A stretch of 64,000 nucleotides of DNA from positions 32,001 through 96,000 of IMG/VR virus record IMGVR_UViG_3300010885_044958; one strand, written 5' to 3'. The stretch is from a virus. Below the pieces are notes generated by a model, which made no database searches, had not been told where the DNA came from, and saw only the letters and a list, made by a program, of their open reading frames with translations. The translations under genes and the position numbers were made by a program. Positions 4,397 through 53,332 of this stretch are shown here, piece by piece (position 1 is the first letter of the stretch; every line of letters starts with the position of its first letter).

Positions 4397-4553
4397 ATTC
4401 AAATAAAATGCACTACATTTGATTTGGAAATACCAGAACTTTTACGTATATTTTATTATACAGGTTCTGATACAACCAACAAAGACATTGCCTTATTTAG
4501 ACTTGATTGGTATCAGCTTTCATTTACTATTTAAGGCTTTTTTATTTTATACC

Positions 4554-24457: not shown

Positions 24458-25166
24458 TTATATATTGTTTTATTAAATTTATAATTAATTCTTCTGGCCA
24501 ATCAAGCTTTAAACTATTCCACCACCAGCAAACTATTCTACAATTATCTTGAGTATATCCTTTGCTATTATCAATTCTATCTATTGATGGAAGTAACGGA
24601 TTTGATTTGTATGCTTCTTTAGATGGAGATATTATTAAATCAAATCCTGTAGCTTCACATTTTAGTAAGGAAATTTGTGTAAGAAACCATTCTTTTGTTA
24701 AATTAAATTCAAGATTTCTTTTTTTAGCTGAATTTTTAGTAGAGCAAAATAGTTTATTTGCAAATCCGGTAAATGTTAAAAAATGCTCTTTTCTAGATCT
24801 TCTTTCGTGCATTTTTTCTGGATTGTTATGATAGTATTCTTTTGATTTATTTCGATGTGTTTCCATTACATCAGGCCTCTGACGGTATATTTGCATATAC
24901 TTATCTTCGCATTCAATGCATTTTGATCTATAGCCTATCTTAACTTTTGGATTTTTATAAAAACAATCTGTTGTTTTTGTTTCTTTACATAAATCACAAA
25001 CTTTATATCCGGTTTCAATTAATTTCATAGCTCTTCTGTACTTTCCAACAGCAGCATTTCTACACTTCTTACACTGGTTTATATAACCATCTTTAATACA
25101 TTTTGAACGAAAAAAGTGTGAGATATCTTTTTCTTCTTTACATACATGGCATATCTTTTTTTCCAT
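24438..25166 (-). CDS. HNH-type homing endonuclease with two zinc-finger repeats
   Basis: Tandem CxxC...CxxC repeats; PSIDRIDNSKGYTQDNCRIVC..N..K; own promoter at 25201-25233. Confidence 0.8.
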   Translation of the reverse strand: MEKKICHVCKEEKDISHFFRSKCIKDGYINQCKKCRNAAVGKYRRAMKLIETGYKVCDLCKETKTTDCFYKNPKVKIGYRSKCIECEDKYMQIYRQRPDVMETHRNKSKEYYHNNPEKMHERRSRKEHFLTFTGFANKLFCSTKNSAKKRNLEFNLTKEWFLTQISLLKCEATGFDLIISPSKEAYKSNPLLPSIDRIDNSKGYTQDNCRIVCWWWNSLKLDWPEELIINLIKQYINGDKFK

Positions 25167-25215
25167 AACATTCTATCGGGCATTCACTTTTAAGCCCTAA
25201 TAAAATATACAAAAT

Positions 25216-26754: not shown

Positions 26755-26786
26755 AAAATGGGCTGCAAAACTTAATCTGCAGCCCT
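26755..26786 (-). terminator. intrinsic terminator
   Basis: GGGCTGCA/TGCAGCCC stem with a T-run on the - strand. Confidence 0.65.
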
Positions 26787-26812
26787 TACATTATTTTAAC
26801 TTGAGATTAAAC

Positions 26813-26944
26813 TCAACACATCTTCCCACCTTTCTTAGCTGTAGGCATTACTTTTCCTTTCGGATTCAGATTTTTTGTAACACTTGGAGTTGGACTCTTT
26901 GAAGCTGTTACTTTTGGATTTGCAGTCTTTGTTGACTTTGCCAT
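26813..26944 (-). CDS. 43-aa Lys/Thr/Pro-rich basic peptide (below the ORF-track cutoff)
   Basis: Translated by hand: MAKSTKTANPKVTASKSPTPSVTKNLNPKGKVMPTAKKGGKMC; A-rich start context and a downstream terminator. Confidence 0.65.
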   Translation of the reverse strand: MAKSTKTANPKVTASKSPTPSVTKNLNPKGKVMPTAKKGGKMC

Positions 26945-31281: not shown

Positions 31282-32061
31282 TCTTTATTTGGTTTAAATT
31301 CTTTAAAATATAATTTTTCTTCTTCTATCGACCTATCTTTAGAAAAATCAATACCTAATAAGATATAAGGAATCCAATAAAAGCTAATCTGATCTTTTTC
31401 TTGTGTTTCTACTTTTAGATAGTGATTGTCTTTATCTAGTGGCAAATCTTCTTTTGCAATTTCTACAAAATTTTCTCGGCAAGATTCTCCAACATGATAC
31501 CAATGATCATTTAATTGATGATAGGGCATCCATCTATCTTTTGTATTAAACAATAAAAGAATTATACCAGATTTGTATTTTTCTATAAAATAACTTTCTA
31601 TGTGTTGCATTATTCTATAGATTGTTTTAGTTCTTCAATATATTCTTTACCTTTTTCATAAGTTACTTCGTTTAAATCTAAATCAAATGCGGCAGAAATG
31701 CATTTTGTTCCATAAATTTTCATAAGATAGCGCACATCTTCCAAGCTCAGGTCGAAATCTTCCAAACTAGTATTTTCTTCGTCTTCATAAAATATTTCCA
31801 CGTATTCCTGTATTACTTCTAGTGTATTTTGCATATTCTATTTTATTTTAGATTGTTTTTAAATTCTTCAAATGCATCATAATCATATAATGCAGATTCA
31901 TGTTCTGGACCTTCACCTATTGCATAAATCATACTAGGATCATCTAATATCTGATCTATTTGATACTTACAATATTCTATCATTGCTTTATGTACTTCTT
32001 CTTTAGTCATTATTGAGTAGCCATTCCAAAATGCATCTACTGTTTTAAATTTTTCTGCCAT
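31278..32061 (-). CDS. three small hypothetical proteins (31278-31610, 31610-31834, 31843-32061)
   Basis: ORF track. Confidence 0.5.
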
Positions 32062-34062: not shown

Positions 34063-34850
34063 ATATATTTTATATTATATTTATTACTTCTTCCTCGCAA
34101 AACATCGTATAAAGCATGTTTATTAATTTTTAATATTTCTGAAGCTTCAATAACAGAATTATATATATCTACATCATTAAAAATTACTTTTTTTCCTTTA
34201 TTTTCTCGATTTGCTTTTTTCATATTTTCTTTTACTTCATCAGTTATGATTCTATTACTCATTCTTTTTGAAGCATCTTGTTTTTGTTTAATTCCTTTTT
34301 CTGATTTAAAAAAATCTTTTCTACTATCAGACATTTTCTGTTTAGTTTTCTCTGAGTGTTTTCTACCTAATTGTTTTTTTACGCGCAAAGCAATACTTTC
34401 TTCAGATCTTTTTAGCCCCGTTTGTATTTTAGACATAAACTCACGTAACTCTGAATTTTTTTCATATCGTTCTAGTGCTTTTTTTCTAATTTTTTGTCTA
34501 GTTTCTTCTGAACAAATTCTCCCCAATGTATTTCCTGCTATTTTTGCAATATTATATTCAGGCTTTAATAGATCAATATAATATTGCTCTCTTTTTATAC
34601 AATTTTCAGGTACGCATATTTCTAAAATTTCAAATATAAAATTTTCTATTCCGTATTTATTAAAAGCTCTTTGCAATTTAATATTACAATGTTTTTTATT
34701 TTCAAGATCTTTTTTATGATGCATTAATCGCATATAAATAAAATCTTTCGCTGCGCACGACCCAACATATTTTTTATTGTTTACTATATTTATAATACAA
34801 TAAACACCATTAAATTGCAATTCTTTTCTTTTAATTTCTAAAAGTTTCAT
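34059..34850 (-). CDS. GIY-YIG homing endonuclease with NUMOD3 repeats
   Basis: GVYCIIN...KYVGS, REQYYID, PEYN, repeated (H/R/C)SEETxxK; own promoter at 34872-34904. Confidence 0.9.
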   Translation of the reverse strand: MKLLEIKRKELQFNGVYCIINIVNNKKYVGSCAAKDFIYMRLMHHKKDLENKKHCNIKLQRAFNKYGIENFIFEILEICVPENCIKREQYYIDLLKPEYNIAKIAGNTLGRICSEETRQKIRKKALERYEKNSELREFMSKIQTGLKRSEESIALRVKKQLGRKHSEKTKQKMSDSRKDFFKSEKGIKQKQDASKRMSNRIITDEVKENMKKANRENKGKKVIFNDVDIYNSVIEASEILKINKHALYDVLRGRSNKYNIKYI

Positions 34851-34891
34851 ATACTTTATTGTTTGTTACAATAAAATATACGAAACTCTTC

Positions 34892-39590: not shown

Positions 39591-40076
39591 TCATGATTCT
39601 TTGTCTGATTTAATTCGGCTAATAAGCCAGCCATTTTTATAAGATTCTTTAGGATGTTCGTGAATATACTTATGATGAAAATCACAGCATGACATAAAAT
39701 GCTTGTATAAATTACCAGATTGGCGACCTTTTTTATGGTGTAACTGTATCTCTTTAGATGTGCATCCAGGAAATTCACATACAGGGTGTTCTAAAAAATA
39801 TTTGTCTCGGCATTTTTGGTACATCTTTTGCCTAACAATCATTTTTTCAGATCTTTTGGATATTGCTTTTTGAGTCTTTTTTAAAGGTGTCTTTTTAATA
39901 GGCTTTACAGGGGCTGTTTTTGCTTTGGGTTTATTGCAGTCTTTATTAGACTGTTTGTTAGTTATCTTAAATGATTCTGGATTGGCTTTTTTATGACATT
40001 CTAAACAATTGCCGCCTTTCCATAATTTTTTTTCTATTCCGCAAGATTTGCATTTTTTAAGTTTCAAATTCATCAT
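39591..40076 (-). CDS. zinc-finger plus HNH-like nuclease domain protein
   Basis: CEFPGC...HHKKGR...CDFHHKYIH. Confidence 0.6.
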   Translation of the reverse strand: MMNLKLKKCKSCGIEKKLWKGGNCLECHKKANPESFKITNKQSNKDCNKPKAKTAPVKPIKKTPLKKTQKAISKRSEKMIVRQKMYQKCRDKYFLEHPVCEFPGCTSKEIQLHHKKGRQSGNLYKHFMSCCDFHHKYIHEHPKESYKNGWLISRIKSDKES

Positions 40077-40273
40077 GCAAAATTAATCTATTTTTTAGAC
40101 TAAAATGCATTTTTGTTTTTATAAATTATTGTCCTGTGATATAAATAGCGAAGAACACCGCAGTTTTATTAGATTGTCTCCATTCTTTTATAGCTTCTAT
40201 TTCGTCTGTTGCTTCTAGAGAAAAGCCTTTGCTCCAAAAATCATCAACATGATCTTTAAATACAATATGATAT

Positions 40274-41077
40274 TTATTCATTTTTATTTAATTTTTGTTC
40301 ATAATATTGTAAATCGGTTTTATTTCTATTTGGATGTTGCAACCAACTATATAATACTTTTACTTTTATATCTATACTATTTGCAGCATCTATTATTTTA
40401 TCAAAAATCTCTCCTGTTTTTATATTAATTATCTTTCTACAATGCATTGGTGTGTATTGTTTATTTACAATATCACTCCAATTAAATTCTGAATTTTCTA
40501 AATATTTATCATAAAAAACATAATTTGATTTATTTGGCATTACACCACGCAACCATTCATCTAATCTCCATTTTTCAATATTGATTGCATCAGCAGCTTC
40601 TGTAATTGTATCATATATAATTTTAGTATTTATATCAATAACTTTTCTACCTGAATTTTTTATTCTTAATATTTTTCTTTTTTGTTGTTCTTCATCTAAA
40701 ACATGCTTACTACCTGTTCTTTTATTATGCATTCTTATTTTTGTTTCATCAGAATGACGCCCTTTTTTATTAGGATCTGTGATTTCAATATTATAACCAA
40801 ATTCTCTATCATTTAATTTTAATATTCTAACCCAGTAATCTTCCCAAAAATTCAATTCTTCTTTTGAACACTCTTGGAGTATTTCAATTATAAAATTTTC
40901 TTCTTTAAAAATATTCCAAGCAGCTTGTAAATGTGGATTATCATGTTTATTTCTACGTAATTTTGACAAATGTTGACTCTGTCTATTCCGAATATTTTGT
41001 GAATACCCTACATATCTTTTTTGATTTATTACATTTATAATTGCATAAATCCCACATTTACTTTCTACACTATTCAT
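40274..41077 (-). CDS. GIY-YIG homing endonuclease with NUMOD3/NUMOD1-like repeats
   Basis: GIYAIIN...RYVGYS, HDNPHLQ, GYN, HSDETK. Start moved to 41077, after the promoter at 41182-41214 and its leader. Confidence 0.88.
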   Translation of the reverse strand: MNSVESKCGIYAIINVINQKRYVGYSQNIRNRQSQHLSKLRRNKHDNPHLQAAWNIFKEENFIIEILQECSKEELNFWEDYWVRILKLNDREFGYNIEITDPNKKGRHSDETKIRMHNKRTGSKHVLDEEQQKRKILRIKNSGRKVIDINTKIIYDTITEAADAINIEKWRLDEWLRGVMPNKSNYVFYDKYLENSEFNWSDIVNKQYTPMHCRKIINIKTGEIFDKIIDAANSIDIKVKVLYSWLQHPNRNKTDLQYYEQKLNKNE

Positions 41078-41221
41078 AAAATATAAAAACCCTCGAATTA
41101 GGTGCAGCCTCTCATTGGGTAATGAAAGTCCTAAAACGAGGGAATAATTAGATATTAGTAATCCCAAAGAGAAGCTGCTAATAAAATATAAGCAATTTTT
41201 CTGAGACTACCAAATCTAGTT

Positions 41222-42481
41222 TCATATCTTTATTTTATGTTTTTTAAAAAACTTTTTTGTTTCTGCATATATAGATATTAAATCATCTTTTTGATAAGAT
41301 TTAATTGATTCTACTATTGCATCTTTTTCTGAATCTTTTATTAATTCTAGTCTTTCTAGAAGCTGTTTGCGATTTGCGACTAAGCTAATTTTCTTTGAGT
41401 CATTCTTATAGGAAATCTGTAATCTTGACTTAATAGCTTCTAATCTTTGTTCAGCTTTCTTAATTTCTACTAATTGCGCCTCGATTTTTTCAAAATTTTC
41501 TTCAATATTTGCAACTAACCTTTTTAATTCTTCAAGACCTACTACATTTTTCTTAGCTTCTTCAAAATAGTCTTCACAATTTTTCTTAGATGCCTCGGTA
41601 AATAATAAATTATGCTCTCTATTTATTAGAATTGCAGTTCTAGCTTTTATTTCATCTATTAAACCAAATTTTAAAAATGGTCTGCATTTATTTTCTAATT
41701 CTGTAATCTTTTTTAGAATATCTAATTTTTCTCGTAGATCTGCGCCTTCTTTTAAATAATTTATTACTATTTGTTTTGCTTGTTTTTCTGTATGAATTTG
41801 ACAACTGCTCTCTCCAAAAAATAATTTTTTTAAACGCGCAGTAAAATCATTTTTAGATTTACCCGATTTTATTTCATATTTTACAGTTAAATATAATTCA
41901 TTATCTATTATCTTTTTAAACTTTGAATAATATTTTGAATATACATCTTCTGCAGACATTGCTTCTATTTCTTCAAGAGTCGGCAATTTAACTGGTTCTT
42001 TTTCTACTTTAGCTTTTGGCATTGCTTTCTTTTCTGGCATATTATCTGTTACTAATTCTAAATTTGCACGTCTAAAAACATATCTTGTATTACCAACTTC
42101 TGGATTATTTATGGAATACCAATCATCTCCGCCAGAATTTCCTAATACAGTAAAATTTCTATTCCAATTGCCAAATAATTCTCGATGTAAAACATCTCTA
42201 ACTACACTAATATTTTGCAATTCATCTTCGTCATCAATAATTCTTACGAGCTGTCCTGGAATTAATGCGCCTCTACTAACTAATTCTAAACAATCTTCTG
42301 TAAACCAATGAAATGATAGATCAGGATTGTCTAAATATATTCTATGATTATCAATGCGACTTATTCTAAATTGTGCATCAAAACTTCCTATTCGTGTTAA
42401 TACATCCCCTCGATTTAATCCAATATTAATAAACGCTCTTTCATTATCAGGTACCCTTACTACGTCATTTACATTTAACAT
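41222..42481 (-). CDS. protein with two N-terminal SH3/KOW-like repeats and a long coiled coil
   Basis: Two repeats ending WFTEDCLELV and VFRRANLELV; heptad-rich C-terminus. Confidence 0.6.
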   Translation of the reverse strand: MLNVNDVVRVPDNERAFINIGLNRGDVLTRIGSFDAQFRISRIDNHRIYLDNPDLSFHWFTEDCLELVSRGALIPGQLVRIIDDEDELQNISVVRDVLHRELFGNWNRNFTVLGNSGGDDWYSINNPEVGNTRYVFRRANLELVTDNMPEKKAMPKAKVEKEPVKLPTLEEIEAMSAEDVYSKYYSKFKKIIDNELYLTVKYEIKSGKSKNDFTARLKKLFFGESSCQIHTEKQAKQIVINYLKEGADLREKLDILKKITELENKCRPFLKFGLIDEIKARTAILINREHNLLFTEASKKNCEDYFEEAKKNVVGLEELKRLVANIEENFEKIEAQLVEIKKAEQRLEAIKSRLQISYKNDSKKISLVANRKQLLERLELIKDSEKDAIVESIKSYQKDDLISIYAETKKFFKKHKIKI

Positions 42482-43042
42482 TTGTTTTATATTTTGTGAT
42501 TTATAAAAAATTTTAATTTATTTGTATGCACCCAGATCTACATAATTCTACATGGCATCTCCAATAACCACCATTACTATCTGTAAACTTAGATACTTTA
42601 TTCATTGCGCCATGATTTTTGCAATGCGGCGTTTTCATAATTTTTTCAGAATCAGAATGCAAATACACTAATTCAAAATTAGAATTACCATCATCTATTG
42701 GTTTTATTTCCATATAAAAAATTTTTAACTATTTTGCATTTACTCTTTACTTAAGACTTAAAAAAAGAGCTACTAGACTAATTAATAATCTAATAGCTCT
42801 CTGTGGAAAGTTCAATCTGCAATTCTTACGGTACAGATTACTGGCGACTATTCTAGCTTGCCATAGCTAAAATTATTTTAATAATTCAATATTAACTATT
42901 AACTGATATTGCTCTTGGACATATTACTACTCTCAGTAAGCTATAATTCCTCTTGCCAGTTTGGACCCGTGCTATTATAGTAGTTAAATACTTGTGAATA
43001 TACATAGAGATTAATCTATATATTATTGAATTATTTTTGTAG

Positions 43043-43113
43043 TACCTCTGGCAGGTAACGGGCCTGCGCACTCCAAATTAGAAGTTTGGTGCTCTTCACT
43101 GAGCTACAGAGGC
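43043..43113 (-). tRNA. tRNA-Arg(UCU), non-canonical D- and T-loops
   Basis: Full cloverleaf: GCCTCTG/CAGAGGT, GCTC/GAGC, CCAAA-CTTCTAA-TTTGG, GCAGG-CCCGTTA-CCTGC; CCA not encoded. Confidence 0.8.
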
Positions 43114-43120
43114 TTATATA

Positions 43121-43624
43121 TTAAATTATATTTTTATAACTTTTGCCTCTGATAATATCAGAAACAACTGTTCTTTTAATATTAAAAATTTCTGCAATTT
43201 CATTTACTAATAAATGTTTACTAGTTTTTAATAATAATTTTATTTCTTTAACTTGTTCTTCGGTTAACTTTCTATTTACAGGAATATTGCCATTCTCAAA
43301 TTTATGGCCTTCTGGTATTTTCATTCGGCCCTTCTTTAGACAATCTTGCATATTATCTTTAGGTGTTCCTAAAAACAAATGATCTGGATTAACACAAGAA
43401 GGATTGTCACAATGATGACATACAAAAATTCCTTTGGGTATTTCACCTTTATGAAGCATAAAACTTAGTCTGTGCATGTCCATCATTTTTCCTTTTACTT
43501 TTATTGAACCATAACCATTACGTTTTGCTCCAGTCCAATTCCAGCAAGAATCTGTTTTTTCAGTTCTTTCAAATAATTTTTTTGTTAAAAAATCTCTTTC
43601 TAATTCTTCCATAATTTGTATCAT
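43121..43624 (-). CDS. HNH homing endonuclease
   Basis: CWNWTG...GYG...HRLS...VCHHCDNPSCVNPDHLFLGT..DN, with a C-terminal HTH. Confidence 0.92.
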   Translation of the reverse strand: MIQIMEELERDFLTKKLFERTEKTDSCWNWTGAKRNGYGSIKVKGKMMDMHRLSFMLHKGEIPKGIFVCHHCDNPSCVNPDHLFLGTPKDNMQDCLKKGRMKIPEGHKFENGNIPVNRKLTEEQVKEIKLLLKTSKHLLVNEIAEIFNIKRTVVSDIIRGKSYKNII

Positions 43625-43692
43625 AGACTAACTTGATAATCTACAATACAAATATACGAAAGTTTTGTGGAACCACAAAATGTAGTTCGTAG

Positions 43693-44140
43693 TGGACCCG
43701 GTGTCATCGCAGACACGTCTACGCAATCATCTGCTCACAGAATTTTTACATGTTTTAGCATAATTTTCTTTCTATGCAAATATTCTATTTTTTAATATTT
43801 TCAGATTTCCTTAGTATTCAATCACCGAAGTGATACTCTATAGTCGGCAAATAATCCAATATTGGTATACTCTAGAAAAAATACCAAACAATTCAATTTA
43901 GTTGTCTTAGAACTGTTTTAATAACCAGACGCTGATGTTGTGAATTATGCACAAACAGCTTCAACATTGGAAGAGCAAAGGCTGTTCAAGAACAGATCAA
44001 TATTGCCTTCAGAACCTACTGTTACGTTAGACGTATTAGTGTTTACATTTATTGTTTATATAGCTTATTTGATGGAAGCCAATACTACTCCATACATGCC
44101 TGCTCACCTATAAATCCCGCATCAATTCTAAAACGGGCCC
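43693..44140 (-). ncRNA. ssrA: tmRNA
   Basis: 5' GGGCCCG pairs with 3' CGGGTCC-A, with a G3.U70 alanine determinant; GCATG/CATGT helix; internal tag ORF 44046-43945 after AATAAAT, ending EAVCA-stop. Confidence 0.85.
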
Positions 44141-44204
44141 AATTTAAAGATAGACACAAATCCGTTAAGATTCATGCCTATCTAGATTTTTTTGTAATAT
44201 GTTT

Positions 44205-46037
44205 TTAATTATTTTCTGGTATTACTAAATCTGGTAATTCTAATGCGTGATTTTGACGGTCCAACATGTTCTCTAAGCCATGCCAGATGTGATTGATTAT
44301 TGATTGCCCAGTCGATTTTTTAATTTTTTCTGGCGCATTCTTTTGCAATAATAATCTTCTTTCTTCAGACCTAAGCTTTATATCTTCTTTAGATCTTATT
44401 CCTTCAGTATATATATTTATTATACCTGATTCTCTACAAGATCTTTTTCTTTCTAAATCTGTTGTAGAAATAGTGTGTATTGCGCCATGAATTTTTTTGG
44501 CTCCGTTAAATACTAGTTTTGCTGACATGTTTTTGAGTTTTTAAATTGTTATAAATCTACTTTTTATTTAAAGATTTTCTCCATTCAGAAAATGCATTCT
44601 TTTCTGCATCTTTTTCTTGTTTGCCTCGGTAAAAATTTGGATCTTTTACTAATGGGTAATCAATTGGACTTGTGGAAATTCCCACAAATGATGGATGCTT
44701 ACTCCAGTGTTGATAACTTGATTCTACTTGTTTTCTTTCTACTGACATTTGTTTAATTTAAGACCATTTAATCTTTGCACAATATTTATTTTTCCAAGCT
44801 TTAAATCCTTCTATTATAGGATTAGGTGTTTTTGGTTTTGATTCTTCATATAATTTATATGCATTTTTCTTTGCAAAATATTTTATTATTTCTGCAATAC
44901 CAAATCCTATAGCAATAATAGCAACAAAACATAATAAAAAGAATAACATTGTTCCAAATCCTATTAAATACCAATAATGAGATATTGGTTGTTTTTTATC
45001 CCACCACATTGTATAGCAAACTATAGAGATAAAAACATGTATAAATCCCCATCCTGCTGGTACACCATCATCTGGATTTTTTCTGTCTAAACAAAAATTT
45101 AATACATGTGCGGGCCATCCTGGAATTGCTAAAATACAAGCAAATACTAAAGACCAGAAAAATCCACAAATATTTCCAGGAAGACTATATGTATGGTAAG
45201 TACTGCGCCAAAGCCATGCATACCAACTATTTTCTTTAAATTCTAATTCTTTCATAAGTTTTTTTATTTAATTTATTCCGTAAATGCTCAAAATCTTGCG
45301 TTCATTCTCAAAAAAATCTCTGGTTGAGGCGCATTTAAGCAAAACACTTTGTAAAGATACTAATCTTTTTTTAGAATTGGTAATTAATTCTTTTATTTCT
45401 TTTATCTTATTTAGATCTTCTACTAGAGCATTTGAGACATACTCTAATAGTTCCAGATCCTCGCAGCTATCACCTAAGGAATAGATGTAACCGTCTAATA
45501 TGTCACTAGCTGCATTTGCAATTTTATGAATTTTTTTAGGATTTTGCATTTTAATTTTTTTAAAAAATCTGGGGCGCATTTTATTACTAAAACACTATTC
45601 AATAATCGAGGAACTCAAAAAACCTTACTATTAAACTTATACCCCAGACTTAAATTATTTAATAAGCATATTTTGAATTTTTGCGCTCTTCATAATCCGA
45701 ATCTTGCCAGTCAAGCTCACCTTCATCTTCAAAATCATCATCTTCATCTTCTACTATAATTACAGGTCTTTTAGACTTAGGTATAAATTCTGAATCATCA
45801 CTAATTGAGTGTTTGTTGGTCTTCTTGTTAGTTTGCGTTTTCATTTTTTAAGTTTTAATGAATGTGATCAAAAAATAATTGTTCTAGTTTTATTAAATTT
45901 TCAAGCTCAAAAATTGATTTCTTTTTCAAATGCATTTTGTCTATAAAAAAATATTTTTTCTCGTGCAATCTATAAAACTTCACAGCTTTATACAAGACTT
46001 TTATTAAATCTTCTAATGAATCTATTTTAGTCTTCAT
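44205..46037 (-). CDS. small early-type hypothetical proteins (44205-44528, 44557-44748, 44758-45255 multi-TM, 45268-45579, 45659-45844, 45855-46037)
   Basis: ORF track; co-directional array. Confidence 0.5.
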
Positions 46038-46208
46038 TCAGCCTCGTGATTTTCAAATGTCTTTTTAATAATATGCCTCTTCTTGTTTGCCTTATGATTT
46101 TTGTGTAGACTATGATCCTTCTTAGGTTTAGATATTATACCTAAAAATACATTTATAGCGATATTAAGTGCTCGTTGATGTTTTTGCTTGAGTTTCTTCA
46201 TAAGTTTT

Positions 46209-46784
46209 TTAGTTTTTTAGTTTTTTCCGAATTTTATAAATAGAATTTTCTATTGTTTTGGTGCTGCATTTGTATTTTTTTGCTAATTCTCTGGCATTAT
46301 AACCTTGCGCAAACATTAAAATTTTTTTATACTCCGCTCTAGTCAATTTGTTTTTAACTGCTAACAATTCTTCAGCACATTCTAATTGTAAATCTATTCC
46401 GGCTTCTTGTTCAGGACTAACCCAATCATAGAAATTTTGATAAGACACATCTCCAATTACATCAGCTTGCCGTAAAGTTCTAGGTTTATCTGACATTTTA
46501 CCAGATATCATCCATTTATTTAGATTTTTTAGTCTATTTAAAAAAACAGTATTGATTATTTTTTGCATCCACAAATTTAATTCCCCGTATGTAGTGCCTT
46601 GAAATTGCAAAATTTTTTCACGCAAACGCATAAATGAATCATTAATAACTTCTTCGACTAATTGTTTATCTAAACACTTTTTTAGAAGCATTTTCTGATA
46701 TAAAGCATAAGTTTTCTCATAGAAATTATCAATTATACCATTTTTTATATCTTCTACTGCATCTATTTTATCTTGTTCTGTCAT
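46209..46784 (-). CDS. ECF/sigma70-like RNA polymerase sigma factor
   Basis: Region 2-like EEVINDSFMRL...LWMQKIINTVFLN; region 4 HTH GYNARELAKKYKCSTKTIENSIYKIRKKL. Confidence 0.75.
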   Translation of the reverse strand: MTEQDKIDAVEDIKNGIIDNFYEKTYALYQKMLLKKCLDKQLVEEVINDSFMRLREKILQFQGTTYGELNLWMQKIINTVFLNRLKNLNKWMISGKMSDKPRTLRQADVIGDVSYQNFYDWVSPEQEAGIDLQLECAEELLAVKNKLTRAEYKKILMFAQGYNARELAKKYKCSTKTIENSIYKIRKKLKN

Positions 46785-46785
46785 T

Positions 46786-48064
46786 CTAAATCTTGATTAT
46801 TAAACCATTTACCAAAACTACTTGTGTATTTCTTTTTTTTTGCAAATCCCCCCATACACAAAGATTTAATATAATTGTACCCAATGTATTTATTATTGGC
46901 ACAAACCAAAAAAATCTTGCACCACATGCAGATTTAAGCCAAATGTCGTGTTTTGCACACAACCTAGCTGCATTTCTACATCCAAATATACTTAGAATAT
47001 AAATACTTATTAAAATTATTATTATCATTCTACTAATTTTTGTATTAATTCAAAATATTTTTCTACAGCTATTTCTATTAGCATAAATTCACATTGCCCA
47101 GTAAAAATCCAAAAAATGCAACAGGCAATTACACCCACACACATAATAGGACAAATAAAAGGAACAAATATTACAGCTAATATAACTGCTGTAAGTCTTT
47201 TTAGTATTTTCATAAATTATTTTTTAAAAACGCTTGTTCTTACAATGAATCTACAAACAACCTATAGTATTTTTATTATATTCTAGATGCAAGCACAGAA
47301 ATTTCCCGTGTAATACGTGCTCTGTCTAAATCTGACAATAATACAAATTCATCAGCTTTACATTCTTTAGTTACTTTTGTATTAGATTCTAATTGTGCCT
47401 TCAAAAAATTTAAGGTTCGCACTCTACGTTTTCTGGCTGATGCCTGTTTGCTCCATGTTTTCATACACTTCTTAGCTTTTAATTGTTATATAATAATTGT
47501 TTGTAATACATTTTTAAAAAACTGCATGTGAGCTGTCTAAGACATTTATCCTATCAATAAGGCCACTCACATACAGAACTCAATCTTTAAGCTTTTACTA
47601 ACTCCTTCAAATCTGCCAAACTGTGATAGATTTTTGTTACTTTTTTGTTTTGTTGTGTGCGCTTTGAGATTGCTACTTTTACCCTATCATTAGGATGCGT
47701 AGCAGGTAAAAACTTGCGTCCAATTTTTGGAAAATTAGAGGCATCTTCTGTTAGTGGAACTTCTTTTACTTCTCCACCAATTACGAATACTGTTGGTTTC
47801 TTGTTCATATATTTGAGTTTTTAAATATTATAAATTTATATCAAGCACATTTATATTAGTAAATACCTTTTTTTTATCTAAAATTACAAATTTGTATTTA
47901 TCTGTAATCTTATTAATTCTTTTTTTAATATCTTCTATTGTTTTTGCATCATTTTTTATAGTGTAAAGGCACATACTAAAATTCTTAGAGTTATAATGCC
48001 CCAGCTCATCATCAATAAATTCATTTACTAATGCATTAAATATTTTATTATTTGTGTTTGGCAT
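46786..48064 (-). CDS. small hypothetical proteins, the first two membrane proteins (46786-47028, 47025-47213, 47276-47464, 47587-47808, 47828-48064)
   Basis: ORF track. Confidence 0.5.
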
Positions 48065-48540
48065 TTCTAATAATTTTATTAGATACTAAAGCTTTTATTA
48101 TATATTGTGCATCTGCGCCTGGAAATTTTTTATTTATTTCAGTTGAATGCCATTTTCCTTTTAAATTTGCAAAATAATTTCCTGCTATTAGTGTTTCATT
48201 ACTCATATTCTTTTATTTAAATTCTTAGTGTATAGATTTAGATTGATTTGCGTTTTAATTTTTTAAAATAAGCAACCTGCTTTGATGAATAGGCTGGTAA
48301 ATAAATCAAGTTAAGGCAAAGCCTATAGCCTACAAAACTCTGCCTTAACTATGTCTTACCTGCTCAGCACGAATGAGTTTTGGCTAATACCAGGAGTACC
48401 AAGTTAAGAAGACCTTTGTATTATTTAAAAGTAATAATTGCAATCTATTGAAAAAATATATTATAATTATTATTATACGTGCAGAATATGCTACGATAAT
48501 GTCATCCCAACTATATTGACTAATTTCCTTGTTGGTTGGG

Positions 48541-48648
48541 CATAAAAAACCCGTTGAGTGTTCGCCTTGGAAGCTTTCTCAACGGGTCAGATATATATTT
48601 GACTATAAATCCCTTATTTGCGTTTCCAAGGCGAACAAATAAAATATA
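48541..48648 (-). promoter_or_regulatory. orphan promoter plus terminator/antiterminator leader
   Basis: TATATTTTA box, a 14-bp complementary pair and a 10-bp terminator stem, followed only by a 7-codon ORF. Confidence 0.55.
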
Positions 48649-49012
48649 CAACTAATTTTTGAAATAAAAAAATGCAACAAAATAGGTGGCTTGAGTTCTT
48701 CGTAGAATTATGATATTATCTCCTTAGTCTCTAAGCAACATCCACCACAGCTCTAGATTACATTGTCTATTTTATTACAATTTCTTTTAAAATGCGCCTA
48801 GAAAATTAGAAAAAATCCCAGGCATTTATTTAAGTGAAACTGTATTTACAGATACAGTATCTTTTCTGATGCAAATTTACACCAAAATAATTTATAAACC
48901 AAATTTATTTATCCTATATTCCAAGGACTATTAGAATCTTTTCTTACAAACCAAGATGCTTTCTTTGGTTTTCTTATTAATAATTTCTTTAATATATTAT
49001 ATATTTTGTGCA

Positions 49013-49924
49013 TTATTGTACAAATTCAATTGTATAATCTTTTTGTAAATGTATTATTACGTCATGCCCAATAACAATATTTCTACCTGTTGGATATGTT
49101 ACAGTATATTGCACTTTTTTATTTAAAATTTCTGGTTCAAGATGCATGTTATCACCAACGATATTAGCCATTATAGCATTTACAGTTCCGTTATCAATTG
49201 TTGCAATTTTTACTTTTTCTTTATTTAAGATTAATATTTTCATATTTTATTTTTTAAAATGCATTTATTTCTTTATTTCAAGACTTTTAATTAATATAAA
49301 TAGAACAATAAACCCATTAATACGTGGAATTCGCTTTTTAAATCGCTTATTACTGCTCTATTTATATTAATCTAATTATTTATATATCAGTTGCATCCTA
49401 TAAAATTTTTGATTTCGCAAATTCCTTTAAACTAAAGTATTCTTTAAAATACCACATAGGAAACCTAAAACCTTGCTTTGCTAATAATCTAATACTAGTC
49501 TTTATTGTAACATTATTTAATGTATCCATGAGTTTTGATTTTATACTTGTTTTGAAATATTTTCTTTTATAATATGTATTGGTATTTTTGCAAGTGTATA
49601 ATAATCATCCTCTGAAAACATTGCATATGCACCTTCATAATTAGTTGCGTCATATTTATTTAAAATTAACGATATACACTTACCATTAGATTTCAAATTA
49701 AGAAATTGATAATCTTCCAAAGAACCATCTCTTCTACATTCTTCTTTAATTCGTTTGTCAAATTCTAATTCTAAAGAAATACTGCCTTCTTTTATTTGTT
49801 CTGAAATATATTTTTCTAATAATTCAATATTTTCAGGAGCATTTAATTCTAAATTATACTTTATTAATTCACCAATAACTATTCTTGGCTTCTTTTTTAT
49901 ACCTAATAATGCTAACAATCCCAT
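49013..49924 (-). CDS. hypothetical proteins (49013-49243, 49541-49924)
   Basis: ORF track. Confidence 0.5.
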
Positions 49925-52585: not shown

Positions 52586-52732
52586 AATTGAAATGTTTTT
52601 TGAGTTTGAATATAAAATATAATTATATTTTCGTCCAAGTCTGATCACAAACTAATTTTAAAGTCTCCTTGGCTGACTGATTTGGAATATTGAGTTTATT
52701 TATGTATATTTTATTATACTAAACTCAATTAT

Positions 52733-53332
52733 ATGGTTTATTTTATCGGTAATAAAGAAAAACAATTAGTAAAGATAGGTAAAGCTAATCAACCCAAAAG
52801 AAGAATCGAAGAAATACAAGTAGGGTTTCCTTATCAACTTGAGATATTTTTGATAATAGAAGGCAATGAAGCAATTGAAAAAACTCTTCACAATAAGTTT
52901 AAAAATAAACACATTAGAGGAGAATGGTTTATATTAGATGAAGATATATTATCATTTATTGACAATCCTCAAATAGAAATTAATACAATATATCAAGACT
53001 CTTTAGATCATATGGTTAGATATAGTAAAGAAACAGAAAACAAAATTGAACTATTATATTCTAAATCTATGTCTAATATAGAAATAGCTAATCAATTAAA
53101 TATTAATATTTCTAAAGTGAGAAAAATTATTAAACAAAGAAAATTAGCTAGTAAATATAGAATATATAAAGAATATAAAAACAAATTAACATCGCAATAT
53201 AATAAAGATAGAAATATTAGAAAAAAATACAGAGAATTATATAGAAAATCTCTAATAACTAAAGAACAATTAGATAATATACTTCTTCAATATCCCACTA
53301 AAGATAAAAGAGGTAGAAAACCTAATGAATAA
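52733..53332 (+). CDS. GIY-YIG T5orf172/MUG113-like nuclease with an HTH
   Basis: VYFI...VKIG...RRIEEIQVG...EKTLH...RGEWF; own promoter at 52681-52713. Confidence 0.8.
   Translation: MVYFIGNKEKQLVKIGKANQPKRRIEEIQVGFPYQLEIFLIIEGNEAIEKTLHNKFKNKHIRGEWFILDEDILSFIDNPQIEINTIYQDSLDHMVRYSKETENKIELLYSKSMSNIEIANQLNINISKVRKIIKQRKLASKYRIYKEYKNKLTSQYNKDRNIRKKYRELYRKSLITKEQLDNILLQYPTKDKRGRKPNE

Follow-up and report, generated by a model that had tools for sequence, protein, structure and literature searches.

Leaders with a 5' end complementary to the interior of their own terminator hairpin: a possible promoter-proximal attenuator in a phage genome

Several leaders encoded by IMG/VR virus record IMGVR_UViG_3300010885_044958 share one layout, in which a promoter is followed by a leader of ~95 nt and then by a hairpin and a U-run, and in which the 5' segment of the transcript is complementary to the interior of that hairpin. 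Judged from the predicted folds, there is about an even chance that this element is a promoter-proximal transcription attenuator in which the very 5' end of the RNA serves as the antiterminator strand. Set beside known kinds of control, the leader type as modeled is most likely an uncatalogued variant on them. In all five copies (s1 to s4 and one copy in related contigs) stems of 6-9 bp stand directly before T5-T6, as in intrinsic terminators, an activity that is predicted for the host.

The DNA that was analyzed, hereafter the window, consists of the 64,000 nt from base 32001 to base 96000 of a 134,236-bp record that is estimated to be ~73% complete; G+C content is 31%. The PolB protein is closest to those of crAss-like phages (28-29% identity), and the source, an uncultured lake phage, appears to be distantly crAss-like. 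When the region 40000-49500 was compared with contigs of four DNA runs, an X4 contig over s1 and an X2 contig over s3 were identical to the window, with 0 variants in the elements.

A promoter-like sequence recurs in this genome. It consists of the box TATATTTTATT, mostly with ATTTGG 19-21 nt upstream (ATTTGG-N19-21-TATATTTTATT). There are 22 exact matches to TATATTTTAT, and 13 were accepted by eye as promoter copies; 11 of these 13 pass a TTTG-spacing filter, and s3 and w77720 fail it. The promoter of the Bacteroidota is composed of a -33 TTTG and a -7 TAnnTTTG element, and the phage box is consistent with it. It is also consistent with the sigma70-like middle promoters of the crAss-like phage phi14:2, which are served by host polymerase according to a preprint (10.1101/2020.03.07.982082); by the same preprint, middle promoters of crAss-like phages are active in vitro with E. 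coli sigma70 holoenzyme. Host RNA polymerase would start shortly past the box (about 4 nt). Since the ATG of an open reading frame falls at motif position 12 in three relatives (L008, L019 and L020; at +3 in L040 and at +2 at w91463 in this genome), the putative transcription start was placed at position 12. In the ORFs of these four relatives and at window position 91463, the ATG lies 0-2 nt past the promoter box, and by sequence, mRNAs in this lineage seem to be leaderless or nearly so. From a reading of the listed start regions, start codons have no visible Shine-Dalgarno sequence.

Two more nuclease genes carry the same promoter with no terminator leader, one for an HNH/EndoVII-like protein of 242 aa and one for a GIY-YIG protein of 263 aa (window 25166-25209, 34850-34880 (-)). 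Together with the s1 and s2 genes, four nuclease genes in the window thus own a copy of it. Other long leaders of this promoter start, by reading, with a local 5' hairpin (GGGC..GCCC at w25209 and TCAGTA..TACTGA at w77720). The features of the individual copies are collected in Table 1.

Table 1. Positions of the leader features and neighboring genes, in window coordinates except where G000 is given.
Feature	Position	Strand	Remarks
s1 leader	41085-41179	-	putative start to U-run
s1 promoter box TATATTTTATT	41180-41190	-	box recurs in genome; ATTTGG at 41210-41215; putative start is the A at 41179
s1 element Z	41191-41219 (-40..-12)	-	promoter -35 region and spacer; pairs with +1..+32 (A and spacer)
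s1 segment A, GCAGCTTCTCTTTGGG	41163-41178 (+2..+17)	-	proposed antiterminator strand
s1 A', CCCAATGAGAGGCTGC	41104-41119	-	complement of A; overlaps 3' arm of upper stem (41109-41116)
s1 terminator hairpin	41090-41142	-	6 + 5 + 8 bp; constrained fold -23.0 kcal/mol
s1 lower stem CCCTCG/CGAGGG	41142-41137 / 41095-41090	-	encloses A'
s1 U-run T5	41085-41089	-	ATG of GIY-YIG gene at 41077
GIY-YIG homing endonuclease gene, 267 aa	40274-41077	-	Pfam PF01541 2.2e-9; PHROG 314 'homing endonuclease'
s2 element Z2, CAGAACTT	4434-4441	+	promoter spacer; complements +5..+12; duplex -13.0
s2 promoter box	4447-4457	+	box motif; putative start 4458
s2 leader and terminator	4458-4543	+	putative start 4458
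s2 5' hairpin GGTT-CTGATAC-AACC	4463-4477	+	predicted; 7-nt loop complements 4510-4516
s2 terminator GCCTTA...TAAGGC and T6	4490-4543	+	A' is GTATCAG at 4510-4516
Endonuclease VII-family gene, 178 aa	4554-5090	+	Pfam PF02945 2.7e-24
s3 promoter box	48638-48648	-	putative start 48637
s3 segment A, TGTTCGCCTTGGAA (+1..+14)	48624-48637	-	14 perfect bp with 48559-48572
s3 terminator CCCGTTGAG/CTCAACGGG and T6	48544-48586	-	9-bp stem, A' in loop
small hairpin just past s3 U-run	48507-48535	-	5 pairs, 3 compensatory versus s4
structured non-coding core 3' of s3	48255-48425	-	~170 nt; paralogous to about G000:5937-6125 (-)
s4, new copy outside the window	about G000:6212-6327	-	9 bp pairing

An earlier note on this DNA had described s1, s2 and a third place as unrelated in sequence and alike in layout, from the promoter to an ATG past the U-run. 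The strings of s1 and s2 are present at the positions it gave, and the pairing at s1 goes far beyond chance. Its A and A' form 14 Watson-Crick pairs with 1 G.U pair and 1 mismatch, and the energy of the duplex between the 5' leader and the hairpin interior (-28.9 kcal/mol) is reached in 0 of 2000 trials in which the hairpin interior was shuffled with its dinucleotides preserved. The third copy, s3, is real and lies on the minus strand, and 0 of 2000 dinucleotide shuffles reach the observed energy of its 14-bp duplex. The three leaders cannot be aligned and are indeed unrelated in sequence. The promoter, the complementary 5' segment and the terminator recur at s1-s3, but the ATG is not general; past the s3 U-run it opens only 7 codons (48520-48543, -), and s4 has no ATG there.

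With regard to the surroundings of s1, no sign of a group I intron was found, in that the Rfam intron models gave no match and the upstream gene is not split but has a stop codon of its own at 41222-41224. The 419-aa protein of this upstream gene has no relative in viral or metagenome contigs, and relatives of the GIY-YIG protein were found at only 3 loci with 23-35% identity. A contig of run X5 (record 26), from a strain with ~92% identity, aligns with the last part of the 419-aa gene and continues with 63 nt unlike the window right past the stop (window 41220), which is a weak hint from sequence that the s1 promoter, leader and GIY-YIG gene may form one inserted cassette. A second TATATTTTAT at 41076-41085 (-) overlaps the s1 U-run and the GIY-YIG ATG; it has no -35-like element at the proper distance and is probably an AT-rich coincidence. 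A mini-ORF of 5 codons is located inside A' (41102-41116, -). The leader mini-ORFs of s1 and s3 are probably untranslated.

At s2, the pairing comprises just 7 bp, between CTGATAC (4467-4473) and GTATCAG. Shuffles reach it in 164 of 2000 cases by energy and in 228 of 5000 by length (a match of at least 7), so that s2 is weak when taken alone. The CTGATAC string is the exact 7-nt loop of the predicted 5' hairpin, and an exact loop complement was obtained in 35 of 20000 shuffles.

The s3 and s4 copies are paralogous units that comprise the promoter, the leader, the small hairpin and the ~170-nt core, and neither precedes a protein gene; there is no ORF of at least 50 aa at 48207-49012. Taken singly, the s4 pairing does not go beyond chance by generic tests (202/2000 shuffles by energy, 187/5000 for a 9-bp match). 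The two cores are 73% identical over 149 nt (blastn E 5e-15; nhmmer 2.7e-13), and RNAalifold assigns 33 pairs to them, 5 of which are compensatory (two copies). A search of the core against Rfam gave nothing, 112 pattern matches in IMG/VR contained 0 homologues by nhmmer, and the core was not found in phi14:2. A search for relatives of a 78-aa protein near s3 found none. Part of a highly transcribed intergenic region of phi14:2 (L416:4030-4510) looks tmRNA-like by eye, with tRNA-like ends, and is unrelated to the s3/s4 core. With two of the four copies in the genome (s3 and s4) ahead of a conserved non-coding RNA, the layout is not specific to toxic nucleases as the earlier note had it; that link is true for part of the copies only.

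Searches found no homologues beyond this lineage, so the s3/s4 pair is the only available covariation test. In the MAFFT alignment A3, the two leaders are in register from the start site. On this alignment 90.9% of cells are paired, and there are 8 double-changed pairs, 6 in A:A' and 2 in B:B', as counted from two sequences and a structure read from them. The terminator stem has 2 double and 3 one-sided changes, and every pair is kept. When the partner was slid by 1-3 columns (six controls), 0-1 double changes and 32-48% paired cells remained, and 1 of 500 column shuffles reached the observed values. Compensatory structure also continues past the U-run of s3 and s4, which argues that the read-through RNA matters and that read-through is used; a released small RNA, the other option in the earlier note, may nonetheless occur. 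The earlier note had proposed looking for covariation among copies and for a family in Rfam; the paralogues do show compensatory changes, and no family matches at the leaders. With Rfam 15, the whole window at gathering threshold gave just 3 tRNAs and one RAGATH-1 hammerhead, all elsewhere. The best match at the leader sites had an E of 0.079, with miRNA models far below gathering, and the s4 locus had one match with an E of 0.44. The RAGATH-1 hammerhead ribozyme match (52603-52679, -; 57.8 bits versus a gathering value of 56.3) is positioned in a divergent promoter region between minus- and plus-strand gene blocks.

A fifth copy was identified in related IMG/VR contigs ahead of an EndoVII-like gene. 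Its pairing TGTAATAGTC/GACTATTACA is 10 bp long and begins at +1, and its sequence is unrelated to the others; since it is identical across 4 contigs, it was counted once. The EndoVII-like protein has 4 identical copies and 10 distant loci without the layout. Counted from the putative start, A has its first base at +1 or +2 in each of the three strong cases (s1, s3 and the relatives' copy). Of the 104 large-loop terminator candidates that were scanned in this record and in five partial relatives, none but s1 (-28.9) and s3 (-25.6) lie beyond all controls, the most extreme of which were -22.5 and -19.2. Two terminators of G002 and G004 (-23.2 and -22.1) were judged unrelated because they have no promoter and their pairing is AT-rich. 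A gene-end terminator at 26760-26815 (-), GGGCTGC...GCAGCCC-ATTTTTT, is preceded by a small hairpin whose loop region complements the terminator loop over 7 nt; 7-mers are common in the scan and this complementarity may be chance.

The wider searches returned little of the same kind. Upstream regions of 71 EndoVII relatives contain 6 large-loop terminators, with a longest complement of 7 nt versus up to 6 in controls. At least 107 distinct promoter-pattern matches were found in IMG/VR, 9 of them with a large-loop terminator, and among the matches listed only the relatives' copy has 10 bp. In phi14:2, none of 19 large-loop terminators stands out. A five-way alignment of the leaders has no common sequence beyond the promoter and the U-run and no conserved unpaired motif; a 'GGGAT...ATATCTNA' element that s1, s3 and s4 might share was noticed only by eye, and no claim is made for it. 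A search for trans targets of the leaders in the 134-kb record (~73% complete) found no antisense target. Leader self-matches aside, including that of s3 A/A', the best match was 19 nt (E 0.009) and in the same orientation, hence not antisense.

The predicted folds were calculated for nested structures only and pseudoknots were unscored, so the direction of the effect could reverse if both helices form together. Within this model, RNA born at the promoter forms A:A' with a probability of 0.93 at s1, 0.96 at s3 and 0.88 at the relatives' copy, and the terminator is absent. The energies of A:A' and of the terminator are -32.1 (constrained; the unconstrained MFE is -29.3) versus -23.0 kcal/mol at s1, -27.9 versus -25.6 at s3 and -21.9 versus -20.2 at the relatives' copy. 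A forced terminator is worse than a forced A:A' by 9.1, 2.3 and 1.7 kcal/mol, respectively, and at s1 by 6.3 versus the MFE. In stepwise folding with 12 nt hidden in the polymerase, A:A' is complete before the 3' arm of the terminator emerges. The s2 and s4 leaders fold into a 5' hairpin and a terminator with the complementary bases in both loops, a kissing geometry.

Since the two pairings are exclusive in nested folding, an attenuator or switch is the best reading. What stands of the attenuator or pseudoknot switch that the earlier note had suggested is the coupling of a terminator to a complementary 5' segment, with nested folds that exclude each other. The direction of the effect is taken from precedent. 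In the guanidine-IV riboswitch (mepA motif), pairing of a 5' element to the terminator loop competes with completion of the terminator stem and leads to read-through (PMC11611296). In 'tug-of-war' antitermination, intrinsic termination is kept down by a stable RNA structure whose sequence does not overlap that of the terminator (bioRxiv 10.64898/2026.06.17.733018). With these two precedents, A:A' is read as an antiterminator.

Under the attenuator reading, the first 10-16 nt of the RNA (A), or the loop of a 5'-terminal hairpin in s2 and s4, would complement A', which lies ~90 nt downstream in the loop or upper stem of a terminator made of a hairpin and a U-run. If A:A' pairs first, the terminator would remain incomplete and the polymerase would continue, reaching a nuclease gene (s1, s2 and the relatives' copy) or a non-coding RNA (s3 and s4). 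If A is not free, the terminator would form. With so stable an A:A', the terminators of s3 and of the relatives' copy would rarely act in this model and read-through would occur almost always. A terminator-then-promoter order would insulate equally well, and the choice of the present order is thus unexplained by the attenuator reading. No sensed input, whether ribosome, ligand or protein, was seen in the leaders; the s3 mini-ORF is missing in s4 and no unpaired motif is conserved. The only candidate input suggested by the folding models is the origin of the transcript, at s1 and s2.

This candidate input derives from a third element at s1 that goes beyond the earlier note, a hairpin with the promoter in its loop. 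Only RNA reading in from the upstream gene contains element Z, and since that gene stops 3 nt before Z, read-in RNA is expected at s1. The Z:A hairpin (41145-41219) has an energy of -22.3 kcal/mol and a z of -4.9, reached by 0 of 200 shuffles. It consists of 26 bp including 5 G.U pairs, which mark it as an RNA-level feature, and amounts to only -5.0 kcal/mol when folded as DNA. Adding 30-300 nt of upstream RNA (7 of 7 lengths) changes P(A:A') at s1 from 0.93 to 0.00 and P(terminator) from 0.00 to 0.99, with energies of -44.2 versus -32.9 kcal/mol. At s2, the 5' hairpin falls from a probability of 0.86 in promoter-born RNA to 0.00 with 45-250 nt of upstream RNA, and at s4 the effect of upstream RNA varies with the length of the context. 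The masked segment is +1..+32 at s1 and +4..+27 with a core of +5..+12 at s2, ~70-90 nt ahead of the ATG.

Complementarity that straddles the promoter is reached by few shuffles at s1 (2/500), s2 (7/500), s4 (6/500) and w52705 (6/500), and in a cross-promoter control by 0, 6, 4 and 3 of 182, respectively. It is absent at s3 (429/500 shuffles) and at the relatives' copy (330/500), where P(A:A') is still 0.84 and 0.94, respectively, when upstream RNA is present. An origin filter therefore does not explain these two copies, which have no Z. At w52705 (window 52675-52751, +), the spacer TTGAGTTTA and transcript positions +5..+14 together form a perfect inverted repeat, and read-in RNA would mask the 16-nt 5' UTR of a 199-aa gene. 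At s1, and less clearly at s2, Z would decide whether A is free. RNA that reads in carries Z, would fold Z:A around the promoter sequence and should terminate; promoter-born RNA has no Z and should read through.

A more far-reaching proposal is that the element is a sequence-independent 'transcript-origin filter', in which RNA from its own promoter disables the terminator through a free 5' strand and RNA from outside is masked and stopped. Such a filter would be a portable module with which selfish nuclease and non-coding RNA genes could insert at any place in a phage genome and yet be expressed from their own promoter alone, and a widespread, uncatalogued class of phage RNA defined by topology. 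This proposal is tentative, and as a whole it is more probably wrong than right.

Several known systems resemble the leaders in part. The trp and pyrBI leaders are classical terminator/antiterminator attenuators. The leaders described here are like them in that three alternative pairings follow one another (Z:A, A:A' and the terminator), but they have neither a leader peptide nor ribosome sensing. Region 1 (Z) is encoded ahead of the start, which would make the origin of the RNA the input, and the antiterminator and the lower terminator stem interleave without overlap. In IS10 fold-back inhibition, RNA from outside folds unlike the RNA of the element itself and the effect is on translation. 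In the lambda PR'-6S-tR' region, a terminator follows closely behind a promoter and the protein Q is needed. The present leaders resemble IS10 in that outside RNA is predicted to fold unlike their own RNA, and lambda in that a promoter closely precedes a terminator; to our knowledge, neither uses a pairing of the 5' end with the terminator loop.

The likeness to 'tug-of-war' antitermination is an antiterminating structure with no sequence in common with the terminator. In that work the structure is immediately upstream of the terminator (10.64898/2026.06.17.733018), whereas here it would join the 5' end of the RNA to the loop of the terminator itself. The s2 and s4 leaders have the same geometry of hairpin loop and terminator loop as the guanidine-IV riboswitch, but the conserved loop nucleotides, ligand, efflux-gene context and Rfam match are absent, and the loop partner of s1, s3 and the relatives' copy is a single-stranded 5' end that forms 10-16 bp. 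Despite the kissing geometry of s2 and s4, the lack of an Rfam match speaks against membership in that class.

The promoter-in-hairpin arrangement of T4 and related phages is documented for I-TevI, I-TevII, I-TevIII, segB and Aeh1 mobE and for T4 soc, e, 39, 25 and 26, where the inhibitory structure exists only on transcripts started upstream (PMC2988022). A promoter beside the nuclease gene yields RNA without the 5' half of the hairpin, and control is on translation since the hairpin hides the ribosome-binding site (PMC2988022). At s1 and s2, a promoter box likewise lies in the loop of a hairpin that can be formed only by upstream-born RNA, ahead of homing-endonuclease genes. The difference is that here the antiterminator strand is hidden, the predicted outcome is termination and no Shine-Dalgarno sequence is visible. 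The masked segment is far from the ATG at s1 and s2; at w52705 the masking does cover the 5' UTR.

The folds can also be interpreted in other ways. If A:A' and the terminator stem coexist and stack as a static pseudoknot, the product would be a compact RNA of ~95 nt with a buried 5' end that aids termination and/or persists as a stable small RNA. The helices allow for this, since A/A' and the lower terminator stem have no bases in common, A' adjoins B' by 0-1 nt at s3 and s1 so that coaxial stacking is possible, and the helix ends at the first base of the RNA in three cases. The linkers have lengths of 10 and 1 nt at s1, compared with 5 and 0 nt at s3. By the author's geometric estimate the 5-nt linker is too short for a 14-bp helix, so that a pseudoknot may form at s1 and is doubtful at s3. 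A point against it at s1 is that 8 nt of the upper terminator stem also belong to A'. A small RNA gene would suit s3 and s4, which have their own promoter and terminator and are not before a protein gene. It fits less well with the compensatory structure that extends past the U-run in these same copies, with a U-run 7-10 nt ahead of the start codon in three copies, and with the lack of a complementary target for the exposed parts in the 134-kb record. On balance, the pseudoknot is unlikely, without being negligible. An improbable alternative is that the helix serves mainly to protect the mRNA against 5'-end-dependent decay or to hold open the U-rich stretch ahead of the ATG, the hairpin and U-run being incidental. 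Local 5' hairpins also start the w25209 and w77720 leaders, and the 5' UTR of the w52705 gene, which lacks a terminator, would be masked by a hairpin that straddles the promoter. However, a role of this kind leaves unaccounted for both the covariation of the terminator stem and the fact that in five copies, independent or diverged, the partner is placed inside a terminator hairpin.

A ligand- or protein-sensing switch, either riboswitch-like or a protein-dependent antiterminator, would draw on the guanidine-IV-like layout of the 5' hairpin loop and terminator loop in s2 and s4. It is very improbable, given unpaired parts without conserved sequence among the copies, no Rfam match, and duplexes of 10-16 bp that require no ligand. 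Equally slight is the chance that the pairings are accidental complementarity in AT-rich DNA or belong to a DNA-level feature such as an operator palindrome, a cruciform or a nuclease target. By generic tests s2 and s4 are within chance range, and the intron endonucleases of T4 bind operators overlapping the promoters of their own genes (PMC2988022). Chance is opposed by the 0/2000 shuffles for both s1 and s3 and, together with a DNA feature, by the compensatory changes between s3 and s4. The use of G.U pairs, the weakness of the s1 promoter hairpin as DNA and the U-run on one strand only are further points against a DNA feature.

If the attenuator reading is true, phages would gate nuclease and non-coding RNA genes by base-pairing topology alone. 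With no conserved sequence in such a device, catalogues built on covariance models such as Rfam would be blind to it. The T4 principle, in which the promoter of origin sets the fold of the RNA, would be extended from translation to transcription termination, and a terminator that is bypassed by one chosen promoter only would make a small, portable part for synthetic biology. The analysis also flags two paralogous non-coding RNA genes in what appears from sequence to be a distant crAss-like phage.
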